A stretch of 64,000 bases of DNA from Malacoraja senta (GCA_038087875.1 CM075986.1:28396001-28460000), one strand, 5' to 3'; positions 25,401-34,400 are shown, counted from the stretch's first letter. Numbers and translations are program-made. The notes: generated from the sequence alone by a model not told the origin.

Positions 25401-28400
25401 TTACCTAATTGTAGCTAATTACAAAATTCAATTACTAGATCTAAACATCTATCAATTTCTTAAGAATAGATTAACATTTTTAAATAGCCTAAGTGTCCAA
25501 ATAACATTCACACAAGAATTCACAATATAACATAATTTTTAAATCTCATTGTCATGGATTTACAGGCCAAATGGAAGGAATTTAATGTTTAATACCTGTA
25601 AATTAATGGCCATTTAAATCATTTTGCGAGTGAGGTTTTCTGGAACGCGATCATTTGGAACGTTGATTTGCGGTGAATTTAACCCCGTATCGGCATGAAA
25701 GATTCTGCCGTTAGTTCGGGGAAAAGAATCACCGTTTCGCATTAAAAAATATGAATTAAAGGCTTCTTAAGAAGCACTTTTATACATTAAAACTTCTGTT
25801 TACCTGTCCCGTGTGTGAAATCCGTCCCCGTTGTCGGCGTTGACGGCTTTCGAAGCTGATTTAAAAATAACTCCAGCGCTGACATTGTCGATTAAATAAA
25901 AATAAAAAATACACAAAGCCCCCGTAGGAACGATTTTTCAGCAAATGCTTGTACTCCAACGAAATATAATACAGGACAAGGTAGGAGAAACCCACGTTTT
26001 AACCCCGCCCCCCCCTTAAAGGCGCCGAAATCGCGCACACGGCCAGTGGCAGAATTGCAGCGCCGCTGAAGGTAAGTATTGTAACATACCTACTGTGTTT
26101 CTTAAATTTTCAAGATATGAACCTATTTAAAACCGGCTCCAAGTACCTTTAACACCGTAAATATATCAATGTTCACCTGCACATCTGCTGTTACTGGTTT
26201 TTGACTCCGTTAAAATGAGCTATAATTATGACTGAGGATTTGGTCGAGACAGCATCACAACAGCAGAGAGCGCTGTTGGTGCATGTTCTGCAGGGTTTGA
26301 ATACATAGCAACAGCATATTAACTGACTACAAGATTCTTATTCAAACCCTCCTACAATTACCTTACCAGGCAACACATTTATTCATCATCTGCAACCACT
26401 TCATAGTTAGTGCTGCATTGGAGCTGAGCCAATATTAGAGAATGTGGACAGACACAAATGGTGGAGTAACTCAGTGTGACACGCTGAGTCAGCATCTCTG
26501 GAGAAACGGAATGGGTGACGTTTTGGCACAAAACCCTTCTTCAGACTGAGCGAGTTTCTACCTGAAATGTCACCTATTCCTTTTCTCCAGAGATGCTGCC
26601 TGCCTGACTGTGAGAAAGGGGTTAATAGGTAAAGTTGATTTAAACTAAGGACCCTGAGAAATAGCTGAGAGTAGACGAGCTCTCCGCACGAACACCCGAC
26701 AGCGCTCGACTAGATAATAACCGAAAGAACAACTGGTGACATTTCAAGGATGAGAAAAAGGAGATAGCAACAGTCCGGAAAGAACTGGGGTAAAGGGCAT
26801 GAACAACTCTCTAGTGCGCATGGGTAATGAGACAAATGAATATTGCAAACACGCCCATCATGACAAGATGTCTCATTTAAATGCACATGCGATGTATGAT
26901 GTGGAGGCACCAGGGGCGGGACCGGTAGAGTGTGCATCTCAGTGCTCTGATTTGAAAGGAGCCCGAAGGGGAGGAATAAATGTAACAAATGTAAAATGAT
27001 ATGAATAAAAGAGAGTGACTTCCCGACCTCGGTGTGTCTCGACAGGGGAGGCACCCGAATCTGCAGACTTGCTAATAAATAAACTTGTTTCTCTAATTTC
27101 TCTAGCATCGTGATTGTGAGCACTCACTTTTTAAACCTCACAAGCCTGGGGACTCGTCTTGGGATCGCCACTCCGGCCAGCTGGCGGCGGTATACGGGAG
27201 AAGGGACGGTGCACCCCGCTGATTCAGCGGCCCTGGACCCCTTGCTTGCCGTCAGCGGTTTGAGCGAGTGATATCCCAGACCAGAAATTAGAGAAACAAG
27301 TGGGAGTAGTTGGAAATCGCGAGGAGCCAAATCGAGTGATTCTTGTGCACAGGACCCGGGTAAGAAAACGACTATTAAGTACTACTCGGGCGATTAAATA
27401 GATCGGAGGGAAATTCCAATCGGAGGATGGGCAATGAAAACAGAAAGCCCAAAAGGGAGGGGAAGGGCGGTAAGCCCGACCCCCGCATTCTGCCTGATAG
27501 TCCGTTGGGGCGAATGCTGAGCCTCTGGGGGCAAGGAAATACCCAGGGATTTTATATATGTGATAATTATTTTGTTTACTGTATTTGTAGATCACATTGT
27601 AAGAGTAAGTAAGTAAGTAAGTTTTATTAGAATCAAAAATGTCCACTGTAGGTAGGTGTATGTTCCTTTAAATAAATTAGGTCATGGTGAAAGGCGAGGA
27701 ACAGCTGTAAGATAACGATTAATTGTTTGTATCCTCGTAACCTAGAAGGGGAAGTTGTAAAATCAGCTTTTGGTTTTTCTGATGTTCTTTTAGATTTCTA
27801 GTCAGTAAAGTTAATTTGGAAAATTGTTACTAGTGCTAGGAATTGGACATTTAAAATAGTGGTGAATATGGATTGAAATAATTGGAAATAAGTTAATTGG
27901 TAGACATTCAAGTTTAGAAAGAAAGGAGAGAGAGAGGCAGTTAGGAGATAACAGAAGTAGAAAAACGACAGGCGTGAAAGTAATAAAGCAGGAGGAGTCA
28001 GTGGAAGATTTAAAAAAGAAAGGTGAATGAATTTGCAAGGAGGCTAGAATATTTGAGAAGCAAGAAATTGAGTTTAGAAAAAGAAAGAAGGCATACCAGA
28101 AAGGAAGCATAGGGATGAGACTGTGGGAAGCATAGGGATGAAACTGCTTTAAAGAGAAAAGAGAAGGACAGACACGGATTATCCCTTGGGGGCACCCATA
28201 AACTGAGAGGGCTAAAAAATACCTCGCCCTATATCCCTGATGGGGGAGGAAATGGATTAGGGCTTTGGAGGAGGAGAACGTGGGACGATTATTGACCATG
28301 GAAGATTTGAAGGCACTGTTGGTAAAAGTGATAGGAACCACTAAAGTGACAGAACTACTGAAGATGGATGGTATAAACTGATGCGAACAATGTAATAAGC

Positions 28401-31400
28401 AATGGCATACTGTTTGACAGTCAGGCAGAGGGTATGGCAGGCCCTCAGACAATGTAATCCAGCAGCCTATCTGGAAAACCAGCTGAAAAGGTGGAGAGTT
28501 GATTGATGAACATTATATTATGAACTACTGTGGTGGATGTCATTCTTCTTAAAGTCAAGCAGATTGGAGAAGGTGGTGAGATTGTCATTAATTTCCCACC
28601 CCTGATTCAGCGAACAGTTGGTCTCTGCGGTCGAGAAATATCGCAAAGATATGAAAAAGACTTGCAAACCAGCAGGAGGAGCTGTTGTCAATAAACAATG
28701 GACCTGGTTGAAAAGACAAGTGAGTCCTTTGACGGAACCAAGCAGGGCTAGAGAATTACATGCCAATAATGAATGTCTTTGGGGAACGTTTCCTCAAAAA
28801 GTCCTATCAGGAGTGAAATTAATCTGGATATAAGCCCTAACAGGACTGGGGTCCCCAAGAGAGAAAAGGATTTAAAGGAGGATTTGTTGGTATTGTTGCA
28901 TAAGTGAAAAGTGATGTAAGAGAGAGAGAGAAATAATAATAATAATTTAAAAAAAAATACTTCAGAATGTAGGACAGAGGATGATAACCTTGGGAAAAGG
29001 CAGGATATAGTTCAGACTAGATTAGGTATAAGCCCTGTAGTGTCGTTTATGATGAATAAGGTAATTAAGAGGTTTGGTAGACCTACAGAAATCAGCTTTG
29101 ACAACGGATTGATTTCATTTAGGGAGTAGCCAAGTTGGTGATAGAGACCCTTAGAGTAAAATACACATTTGGGTATGTAACACCTACAGTCACAGGCATG
29201 GTGGAAAGAATAAATGGAACATTGAAGGTTAATATAAATAAGATTTGTTTAATTACAAAGTTGAATTGGATCGATGCCCTGCCATTGGCACTGAAGAGAT
29301 GTTGCATGCAAACTAACCGAGCTGGTGGCACAATGGAGAGGTCCCTACAAGAGACCGAGTTTGGAACAGTTAAAGATAGAATTTTAAAAGTATATGAAAC
29401 AGTTAATTATGATATACAAGTCTATTTATGAACAGGTAACGTAAAAGCTGTTGGAGGTGGACCAGGAGGAAGGACCCTTTAAACCTGAAGACAAGGTGTA
29501 TGTATGAGTTTACTAAACTACCGACCGATGTTCAGGTAGAAGGTTGATATACCTGGTACCATTTCAATAATTACATGAGGGCTGTCCTGCAGGTATGAAT
29601 AGATAATAGCCCTGAGGTAAGTGAACAGGAGGACAAAGATGTGAGAAAAGAGTAGAGTTTTAACAAGAACGTTGTTTGACATCAGTGGTGGGCAAAATAA
29701 TGGAAAGGATACTTAAGACAATATATAAGAATTTGGATAAATAGGGTAGGATTAGGAAGAATTAGCATGGATTTGTGATTGTGATGTTTGACTAATCTTG
29801 AATTTTTTGAAAAGGTTATTTGACAAGGTTCAATAAGGAAATAAGGTTGGTTAAGAAGGGTTAGTAAGGAATAGCAAGATGGATTAAAAAGTGGCTGTAT
29901 GGGAGATGTCAGAGAGCAATGGTGGATGGATGTTTGTCAGGTTGGAGGTCAGTGACTAGAGGGGTACCTCGGGGATGTGTGTTGGGTCCACTGTTGTTTT
30001 TCATGTGAATCAATAATCTGGATGTTGGTGTGGTAAAATAGATTAATAAGTATGTAGATGATACTAAGATAGGTGGTGTTGTGAATAAAGAAGTAGATTT
30101 TAAAAGTGTACAGAGAGATTTGGGTCATTTGGAAGAGTGGGTTGAAACATGACAGATGGGTTTAATGTTGATAAGTGTGAGGTAATACATCTTGGCAGGA
30201 CAAATCAAAATTGGACGTACATGGTAAATGATTGTGAATTGAGGAATGAAGTTGAACAGAGGGATAAGGGGGAAATCCTTTAAAACCGAGATGAGAAGAA
30301 CTTTTTTCACACAGAGAGTAGTGAATCTCTGGAACTCTCTGCCACAGAGGGTAGTCGAGGCCAGTTCATTGGCTATATTTAAGAGGGAGCTAGATGTGGC
30401 CCTTGTGGCTAAAGGGATCAGAGGGTATGGAGAGAAGGCAGGTACGGGATACTGAGTTGGATGATCAGCCATGATCATATTGAATGGCGGTGCAGGCTCG
30501 AAGGGCCGAATGGCCTACTCCTGCACCTAATTTCTATGTTTCTATGTTTCTATGATCTAGGAATAACTGTGCATAGTTCCCTGAAGGTGGAATCTCATGT
30601 AGATAGGATGGTAAAAAAAGATTTTGGTGTGTTGGCCTTTATAAATCAGAGCATTGTGTATAGAAGTTGAGTTGTAATATTAAATTGTACAGGTATTGGT
30701 GAGGTCAATTGTGGAGTATGGTGTATAATTTTGGTAGGCATAATTATAGGAAAAAGGTCAACAAAATAGAGAGAGTACAGAGGAGATCAATTAGAATGTT
30801 GACTGGGTTTCAGCAACTAAGACACAGAGAAACGTTGAACAAGTTAGGTCTTTATTATTTAGGAAAGATAGAAGGGGTCCCAACAAATACAAGGGAATGA
30901 TGTATTCCTAAGGAACTATTTACTGGCAGTATCTCGTTCTATTACATAATTAAAAACCAAGGGGCTGCTGGCACAGAGTTCCCATCTCGACTTTCCAATC
31001 CATTCTGTAAAAGTGAGGGACTGGGATCTTGTAACATCATGGAAGGAAGAAAAGTTGCAACCCCGTTGGACTGGTCCATATTTGGTATTATTAACCACCG
31101 AGACAGCAGTACGAACAAAAGAAAAAGGGTGGACACATGCAAGCCGATTTAAAGGTCCTGTGGAGGCCCCATCAGACAATATCAGCCCGTGGACTGTGCG
31201 CGAAGGGAAGGAACCATTGACTTTGGTATTCACCAAGACCCCACACGGAAAATGAAGACTTCGTGCTGGTGGATCGTGTGTTGGGTGGTTACCCAACTCA
31301 TGAGTTGTATAAAAATGACAATACCACAGAATAGAAAGTCCACCACCATCCCATTTAATGTATGTAAAGGAAAATGGTGGTGTGGCTATAGGATGTATGT

Positions 31401-34400
31401 ATGCACCCATCCCTGTAAAAATTGGCACGCGGTGTTCACTTCATCAAGAGATGGGTGGCATCAGCCCACCTATCAAACTGGGAGGTGGAGAGTATATCAA
31501 AACCCAAATGAGGGATTGCCAGGACGCCGCCATCATGGCCTTTAGAACACAGTATGACCAGCGAGAGGAAGATAGGGAGGTGAAGATTCTGCTGTTAGCA
31601 CTAGAAAAGGAGGAAATAGTATAAATCAAAGTAGCGTAGCAAAAGAAAAAGGGTGGATTGTGAGAAAGGGGTTAATAGGTAAAGTTGATTTAAACTAAGG
31701 ACCCTGAGAAATAGCTGAGAGTAGATGAGCTCTCCGCACGAACACCCAACAGCGCTCGACTAGATAATAGCCGAAAGAACAACTGGTGACATTTCAAGGA
31801 TGAGAAAAAGGAGATAGCAACAGTCTGGAAAGAACTGGGGTAAAGGGCATGAACAACTCTCTAGTGCGCATGGGTAATGAGACAAATGAATATTGCAAAC
31901 ACGCCCATCATGACAAGATGTCTCATTTAGATGCACATGCGATGTATGATGTGGGGGCACCAGGGGCGGTACTGGTAGAGTGTGCACCTCAGTGCTCTGA
32001 TTTGAAAGGAGCCAGAAGGGGAGGAATAAATGTAACAAATGTAAAATGATATGAATAAAAGAGAGTGGCTTCCCGACCTCGGTGTGTCTCGACAGGGGAG
32101 GCACCCGCCTCTGCAGACTTGCTAATAAATAAACTTGTTTCTCTAATTTCTCTAGCATCATGATTGTGAGCACTCACTTTTTGAACCTCACACTGACCCA
32201 CTGAGTTACTCCAGCATTTGGTGTAAACCATCATCTGCAGTTCCTTCCAACACATTAAGTTCCTAGCACTTCCATCTGACAATAGACAATAGATGCAGGA
32301 GTAGGCCATTCAGCCCTTTGAGCCAGCACCGCCATTCAATGTGATCATAGCTGATCATCCACAATCAGTACCCCATTCCTGCCTTCTCCCCATATCTATC
32401 TAACTCTCTCTTGAAAGCATCCAGAGAACCGGCGTCCTCTGAGGCAGAGAATTCCACAGATTCACAACTCTCTGTGTGAAAAAGTATTTCCTCATCTCTG
32501 TTCTAAATGGCTTACCCCTTATTCTTAAACTGTGGCCCTGGTTCTGGACTTCCCCAACATCGGGAACATGTTTCCTGCCTCTAGCGTGTCCAAACCATTA
32601 ATAATCTTACATGTTTCAATAAGATTCCCTCTCATCCTTCTAAATTCCAGAGTATACAAGCCCAGCCGCTCCATTCTATCAACATATGACAGTCCCGCCA
32701 TCCTGGAAATTAACCACAGCCTGACATAAAAACAGCTTTTTTCTACGAGTAGTAGCTCTACTCAATAACCAAAAGTCTATCGCCTCCTTTTGCTCTGTTA
32801 TTTTATTTCATTCACATGTTTAAACTATAATGTTTTATTCTTAATGTTTTATGTTTTATTCTTAATTGTTTACTGTATGTCGTGTTGTTACTTGCGAGCG
32901 GAGCACCAAAGCAAATTCCTTGTATGTGAATACTTGGCCAATAAACTTATTCATTCATTCATTTTGTCTGCTCCACTCAGAGAATGAGGTGTTGAATAAC
33001 CTCTTCAATTGCCCGTGATATTCGGATGCATTGTAACTAGAGGGCAAGTGGTGTTCTTAGCCCAAATTAATGGCCAATTGTCCATTCAGTTCCCTAAGGG
33101 ACCCCAGACAGAGGAAGAACTTTGAACAGAAAATTAAAGGTATCAGCCTTACTTTTGGAATGGAGTTTATTGAGGAAGGTCTCCAAGCTATCCAAAGTAG
33201 CATCACTCTCCAGGGGCACATCAGAACGACTTGTAATCTCTGTAAAGTAGAGTATATAGCGTCAACAATCCAAGGGAGCATTAGGATCAAGAAATGTATC
33301 TTCAATTGAAGTATCAAACACAACGATGTTCCACAGGCATATTGTACTTTACCCTCTGACAGTCATTCCATTGAATTCATTAGAAGTGAACCCGAGTGGC
33401 AGAAGACAACATGCCAACACTGCAATATACATGAGCAAAACAGGATGCTGCAGGAAATCAGCAGGTCAGACAGCATCTGTGGAGTGAATGGACAGATGAT
33501 ACTTTGGGTCAGAGCCTTTCTTCAGACTGTCTGAACAGGTTCCCAAACCGAACATCACTCGTTCATTCCCTCCATAGATGCTACCTGACCCACAGAGTTC
33601 CTCCAGCACTTTGTGTTTTACTCAAGATTCCAGCATTTGCACTCTCTCGAGTCTCCATTTTATTACAATGGTCATGTCTACAACTGAACCACTCCTCCAG
33701 ATTCTGAAAAATGAAAATTACATTTTGGTTCACCAATATAAAGTCCAGATACTTGATTATCCCTCGAAAAGAACGTGGTCCTAAATGTTTTCACACAGAC
33801 ATCTCGGGGAAATGAATTTCTGACTTATTTAGTCTGTGTAAAAATGGAATGGAATCTTATATCTTTCCATTTTATTTTCAGTTCAACTCTTTGGTCTCCT
33901 TCGTTATATACTGAGGTATAACTTGCCCAGATTGAGCTAATAAAAGGAATGGGATAATGTTAATATTCAGGACAAATTGTGTTTGTGTGCGAGGGGTGGG
34001 AAGGAAGGAATGAAAATTGGTGATATTGTAAGCAGGGTGAGAGTTTGGCAATGGAGGTCATTCAACTCAGGCACTGGGCTGTCTGTGAGGAAAGCCCTTG
34101 GTCACTATCAAGAAGATGGTGGCTCACTGCTTACATTAAAGGTCTGGCAAACCAACACGTCATACCCATACTGAGCTGCCCCTGAGATAGTGGTGCTGAG
34201 CCCTGCACTCGTTCCAGATTCCATGACTTTCCTGCTTTAACCATGGATTTGTGGGTTTCCAAGATGGCCTGGACTTTGTTAACAAAAGTACTGAATAAAA
34301 TGCGGCAGAAAGTCATACAATTAACCGGCAATTTGTTTGCCGGGACATGGCACTGATCCCACAGTGTCAACAGTAGTTTGGTTTAGTTCAGTTTAGAGAT

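Follow-up and report, generated by a model that had tools for sequence, protein, structure and literature searches.

The question raised by this locus is how one strand of an endogenous retrovirus (ERV) came to be almost devoid of cytosine in places, while its guanine stays abundant. Within the window (the whole stretch of 64,000 nucleotides of Malacoraja senta DNA analysed here, GCA_038087875.1 CM075986.1:28396001-28460000), positions 27545-30260 (2716 nt) hold 307 C (11.3%) vs. 724 G (26.7%), a C deficit relative to the window mean with a binomial P of ~2e-55. The first-pass annotation, made from the sequence alone, had confined the depletion to this interval and ascribed it to C-to-U editing of the plus strand, possibly by an uncharacterised deaminase defence, or else to a bias accumulated over replication cycles. 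The depletion and the most extreme 60-mers were reproduced by recounting (27841-27900 with one C, 29701-29760 and 30061-30120 with two each), but the 3′ limit had been drawn too early: the C-poor core extends beyond a nested CR1 insertion to ~30856, with 9.3% C in 30555-30856.

The provirus (26609-32192; it and all features given with exact coordinates are on the plus strand) is flanked by a 5-bp target-site duplication seen in the sequence (26604-26608 and 32193-32197) and is hosted by a short interspersed repeat (around 26604-32197), recognised by its match to repeat family D3. The LTRs (26609-27142 and 31659-32192) are 97% identical (521/537), and the 5′ LTR is of a helper type, with 84-92% identity to an ERV family possessing long pol frames. 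It is followed by a helper-derived segment (27143-27545, 24% C) comprising a PBS-like site, the leader and the first ~43 gag codons, the latter with 86% amino acid identity to helper gag 24-66. The core opens with the leader region of an older family, natively very poor in C (27545-27910), and continues with broken relics of gag (27911-28883) and pol/integrase (28941-29668; 64% amino acid identity to P0039) from the same older family. Next comes a captured sense fragment of CR1 ORF2 (RT domain), identified by free copies (L021-L040) and by precursors with the same junction. Its pieces A (29674-30261, 6.6% C) and B (30555-30856) are separated by the 3′ end of a young CR1 (30262-30554), a later insertion that is 99% identical to window positions 42579-42870 and missing at this site in 20/20 sisters. 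The end of piece B is the recombination junction with the helper, beyond which lie a helper-derived integrase C-terminus, an env remnant and the polypurine tract (30856-31658; PF18697 with E 6e-9, 87-89% identity to the helper, 84% at the amino acid level). The reading frames are broken, so the provirus lacks coding capacity. The closest named protein, at 81% identity, points to a cartilaginous fish as host, probably a skate.

The limits of the core coincide with the helper junctions: the helper family matches the window through 27551, where the blastn match of the helper copies breaks off, and again from 30856 onward. Neither the helper, which shows no DNA match to the core and just 40% amino acid identity in integrase, nor other ERV families, which are unrelated, qualify as the core source; the middle section stems from a different, older ERV family. 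Deleted non-autonomous intermediates without CR1 were found, along with a precursor family that shares the integrase-CR1 junction, retains the CR1 3′ end in full, is flanked by LTRs of the old family and lacks any match to the helper, and the integrase-region tree (62 copies) forms a ladder from the coding family to the young one. Overall, a deleted, non-autonomous lineage arose from a coding older ERV, took up a natively C-poor CR1 piece and later had its LTRs and ends swapped for those of a younger helper. The element is hence a non-autonomous, recKoRV-like ERV with a non-coding passenger core. As had been noted initially, the LTRs (19% C) and the nested young CR1 (17%) are spared from the depletion, and C is likewise normal in the helper-derived leader (24%) and the 3′ segment (19%). 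The LTRs and the nested CR1 retain C because they joined the element later, so the contrast with the core is one of origin (recombination with the helper, insertion at a later time), not of selective sparing.

The C-poor core is a family trait. Genome searches returned 642, 1641 and 658 candidates, and all 40 of the CR1-piece matches listed from the 1641 were 98-100% identical. The element was re-amplified as new insertions, as indicated by hundreds of candidates, LTR pairs of 95-100% identity and the target-site duplication. Among the first 20 sisters, 16 end at one and the same 3′ truncation and are possibly segmental copies, so only 7-8 of these 20 were tallied, together with 20 dispersed copies.

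Much of the observed C poverty is inherited, so that one of the grounds named beforehand for dismissing the depletion, a source CR1 poor in C by nature, applies in part. Free copies of the source CR1 contain 11.4% C and 29.9% G (22 copies), with 7-8% C at four-fold sites and just 6 and 4 C opposite 29701-29760 and 30061-30120, respectively; opposite 27841-27900, each of the 5 older relatives examined has 0-1 C. A purely native composition (or an artefact), with nothing lost, would be compatible with the natively C-free leader segment and with the 11% C of the source CR1, and native composition makes up about two-thirds of the CR1 deficit relative to a 23% background. Still, this explanation is almost certainly wrong and is refuted as a complete one: on top of the native poverty, 41/106 C of the CR1 piece have been replaced, vs. 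18/283 G, 13/282 A and 14/269 T (fixed differences from free CR1, P=1e-13; 29 young copies), and C is kept in direct precursors with the same junction. Among the scored CR1 changes of C, 32/40 are non-synonymous or introduce a stop, so these changes arose in the element; this and the C retained by the precursors rule out mis-polarisation through the evolution of CR1 itself. The suspected conversion of gcagat to gtagat is genuine as well, the corresponding column (637) of free CR1 being C.

Taken over gag, integrase and CR1, the fixed losses amount to 94/331 for C vs. 50/646 for G (P=9e-17), the further C loss ranging from 17 to 39% by segment. On the gag stem, 17-26% of C and 5-15% of G were lost, and in integrase 27% and 9%, respectively. 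Arranged 5′ to 3′, the C loss reads 17, 26, 27 and 39%, a suggestive gradient between segments whose reference sets differ.

The loss proceeded stepwise. Of the 41 CR1 losses, one is present in all of 9 precursors, 11 in some and 29 in none, and each of 29 precursors carries 0-6 of the 41 in mosaic sets; such partial losses rule out a single hypermutation burst in the founder. The precursor copies are independent insertions, as evidenced by different flanks in 21/21 copies with a located 3′ LTR end (of the 29). The alleles common to at least 3 of the 29 precursors are biased (C 24/120 vs. G 15/327, P=2e-6), whereas singletons are not (C 50/120 vs. G 122/327, P=0.44), post-insertion decay is strand-symmetric, and free CR1 lineages display no strand bias in 19 copies and 34 fragments. 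Hence, the C loss was cumulative and tied to retroviral replication; the unbiased free CR1 also speaks against a general host effect on retrotranscribed RNA. In gag and integrase, successive trunk segments repeat the bias (C 12/238 vs. G 7/393; C 41/234 vs. G 31/416); along the trunk, plus-strand C was replaced 2-6 times as often as G. Thus, the second option of the first-pass annotation, a bias accumulated over replication cycles, is borne out by the precursors and the trunk.

The spectrum of the core losses comprises 48 C>T, 34 C>A and 12 C>G, as compared with 40 G>A, 6 G>T and 4 G>C. The strongest asymmetry is that of C>A (34/331) vs. G>T (6/646); the polarity opposite to APOBEC3 holds too (C>T 48/331 vs. 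G>A 40/646). Decay of methylated CpG, which would be symmetric and CpG-confined, is not the cause: outside CpG, the loss affected 82/290 C vs. 41/588 G, i.e., the substitutions are neither strand-symmetric nor restricted to CpG. Plain C-to-U editing as the main cause is disfavoured, because it predicts C>T alone and 46/94 of the fixed C losses are transversions (C>A or C>G). Lost C was more frequent after G (35/81) and T (28/74) than after A (13/84) and C (11/65), the preference for a preceding G being significant (35/81 vs. 52/223, P=0.001); the WRC context was hit in 32/89 vs. 51/190 cases, AC was cold (13/84), and the core C losses showed no preference for a TC motif. The changes recur at hot sites: two different replacement bases were seen at 12/54 hit C sites, vs. 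2/41 for G, 0/23 for A and 0/24 for T, and C sites polymorphic in the precursors were lost later in 20/26 cases vs. 21/81 for other C sites (P=5e-6). Tandem substitutions, typical of shark hypermutation, were considered and rejected, as 9 adjacent pairs were counted vs. 7.8 expected.

On balance, the extra C loss probably represents a plus-strand C>T/C>A/C>G bias acquired step by step in replicating lineages, and RT errors are its likely source, judging from the sequence comparisons. In this scenario, a wrong base would be inserted opposite template C in minus-strand synthesis during reverse transcription. The same pattern would be expected whether RT misread a normal C, read through a chemically blocked one in its RNA template or copied a damaged G of the single-stranded minus DNA. 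A passenger free of coding constraint would then drift to the mutational equilibrium of its replicase, predicted at ~2-8% C.

The closest known analogue is the A-rich, C-poor bias of HIV-1, for which the consulted part of van Hemert et al. (2013, PMC3594280) gives single-stranded-RNA rates C>U:C>A:C>G of 1.007:0.575:0.195. The pooled C row of the present element (C>T:C>A:C>G 54:41:14, with 9 G>T) fits that row (chi2 P=0.32). As far as that part of PMC3594280 goes, C is the most replaced base in both, with C>U above C>A above C>G in similar proportions, C>A far exceeds G>U, and the predicted equilibrium is ~48-50% A. At the same time, the C loss relative to G>A is here ~2-4.5 times that of HIV, G>A being weak, so an HIV-type bias explains the shape of the spectrum and not its size. 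Further differences from HIV-1, as described in the same part of that source, are that its changes concentrate at unpaired bases whereas the sites hit here are not predicted to be unpaired, and that the present record is kept in a LINE fragment that is non-coding and was captured by a fish ERV. RNA-folding prediction assigns an unpaired probability of 0.18-0.28 to hit C vs. 0.25-0.32 to non-hit C, i.e., the former tend slightly toward pairing (P=0.04 for one window size out of the three used).

Alternatively, a host enzyme could lesion plus-strand C at a low dose per cycle, acting via deamination, uracil excision and error-prone bypass or via an N3-type RNA block. This would amount to an undescribed antiretroviral mutator of cartilaginous fish, placing a non-instructive lesion on C in GC/TC context in packaged ERV RNA or nascent plus DNA; one ERV lineage and not LINEs would be affected, and the captured CR1 would be its fossil reporter. 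Both the enzyme and its casting as such a mutator seem unlikely to us. The strict C specificity with the bias to a preceding G, the recurrent multi-allelic hot sites, and a bias stronger than that of HIV and episodic across branches are in line with an enzyme, and deamination followed by abasic bypass can yield transversions, as known from AID/UNG. On the other hand, no burst-hypermutated copy occurs among 29 precursor and 29 young copies, C>A lies far above C>G, the WRC preference is slight, TC is not preferred, and free CR1 lineages are unaffected. Two profile searches for the AID/APOBEC family retrieved only 2 loci, APOBEC2- and APOBEC4-like, and the survey was incomplete, since it missed AID itself, which is expected in jawed vertebrates; within that incomplete search, no APOBEC3-like gene was retrieved. 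No AID/APOBEC motif clearly fits and no deaminase expansion was retrieved in that search; the novel deaminase defence put forward initially is unlikely. If a host lesion-forming enzyme did turn out to be the cause, it would constitute a new class of retroelement defence.

Two further explanations dispense with a mutator. Selection on the passenger RNA could have removed particular C (weakening base-pairing or abolishing a recognition site) by sorting ordinary mutations; this appears distinctly unlikely. It would account for the bias of trunk branches and its absence from side stems, C-row proportions resemble those of ordinary decay, hit C is predicted to be slightly more paired, and multi-allelic sites are also compatible with site-specific selection. 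Against it stand the dependence on the 5′ base and the shared C-loss alleles, whose frequency is not significantly higher (median 0.15 vs. 0.12, P=0.12). Compositional selection also predicts that gains of C be held down, and they show no such deficit (T>C 20/641 against A>G 17/854). Highly improbable is a scenario in which reverse transcription played no part and transcription-associated mutagenesis acted on master loci that were long-lived and strongly transcribed. Any shared allele must have gone through a transcribed source locus, and deamination of non-template-strand C is known to yield plus-strand C>T; but the excess on the non-template strand is of C>A, not of G>T, and the source lineages of free CR1, likewise transcribed, lack the bias. 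The young-family stem, moreover, acquired 61 changes per ~940 sites, faster than genomic residence suggests; judged by their LTR pairs (94-100%), precursor and young copies are of overlapping age.

The C loss also shares features with better known mutational processes. APOBEC3 hypermutation of retroviruses and ERVs is a strand-asymmetric, replication-linked G>A change at C:G pairs, all-or-none and with a TC/CC motif; the present process is likewise strand-asymmetric, replication-linked and directed at C:G pairs, but it concerns the opposite strand, consists half of transversions, is gradual and lacks the TC/CC motif. In AID somatic hypermutation and kataegis, C is replaced by each of the three other bases, with hot sites, as in the core, where the WRC signal is nevertheless weak, TC is not preferred, C>A is well above C>G, A/T mutagenesis is absent and the changes are cumulative over many insertions. 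Structurally, the element recalls recKoRV1, in which, according to the consulted part of Löber et al. (2018, PMC6112702), the LTR and gag leader as well as the 3′ env end and LTR derive from a younger retrovirus and the middle from an older degraded retroelement, and which exists in many copies. Here, by contrast, the middle had already been moving as a non-autonomous family in its own right, equipped with LTRs and a captured CR1, and it bears a compositional signature, no such bias being mentioned for recKoRV1 in that part of PMC6112702.

The ingredients, a recombinant non-autonomous ERV and a C-poor retroviral bias, are known; the element is set apart by how strong the bias is, by the repeated hits at hot sites and by carrying its own neutral reporter. 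No description of plus-strand C loss in fish ERVs was found in the literature searched, which left supplements and most subscription papers outside its scope, and the consulted parts of PMC7140322, PMC5399928 and PMC11331410 offered background and nothing decisive for C loss. The captured LINE fragment, with its known source and successive lineage stages, provides a natural, neutral record of retroviral mutation, separating replication-linked mutation from genomic decay. On the old question of whether retroviruses are C-poor by mutation or by selection, the unsuppressed C gains and the hot-site losses favour mutation.

The bias was not constant per cycle, as it is weak or absent in the shared alleles of the young family and in two side stems (C 1/223 vs. 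G 7/392; C 7/268 vs. G 5/425). In 39 young copies, the shared alleles are weakly skewed (C 23/303 vs. G 36/700) with one C>A, the corresponding figure for the CR1 piece being 3 of 39. The bias may have faded there because few hot sites were left, because a different helper took over, or both: hot-site exhaustion would account for a part of it, and the replicase may also have changed when the helper was swapped, with 16% C at four-fold sites in the old coding family and 22-23% in the helper.

At four-fold sites of the active CR1 subfamily that supplied the captured piece (free copies L021–L040), C makes up only 7–8% and G 28–32%; despite this low content of C, the C bias is absent from the recent shared alleles of the subfamily. 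The same CR1 subfamily is found at positions other than that of the captured piece in six related non-autonomous copies (L115, L116, L121, L122, L128, and L129), apparently as a result of independent captures, and changes there are few, the shared ones amounting to 3/90 at C vs. 2/250 at G. The stem of the side clade formed by L115, L116, and L121 displayed a different plus-strand skew in the gag and integrase relics, with A>G at 11/565 vs. T>C at 1/346, an excess possibly originating from ADAR-type RNA editing. C depletion is absent in a distinct young ERV family (L061–L064, L075, and L080), whose near-identical members have long open reading frames for gag, pol, and env.

Young copies (L041–L060 and L092–L100) possess cores 94–98% identical, but the similarity of their LTRs is just ~80%, which implies that LTRs were exchanged with helper subtypes more than once; in several of them, the LTR pairs are 100% identical. 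Among the sisters of the window provirus (L001–L020, L087), 16/20, located mostly on small unplaced contigs, share an end point corresponding to window position 31428, and no 3′ LTR was found in their fetched DNA, which suggests that these copies were amplified as part of a larger repeated unit.

The AID/APOBEC-family profile searches of the genome yielded APOBEC2-like (L161:1456–2013) and APOBEC4-like (L162:1297–2283) coding exons. Elsewhere in the window, several tandem arrays (15-nt, 18-nt, and 16-nt units) and G/C-rich low-complexity tracts occupy positions 49200–53900 and 60290–60420.
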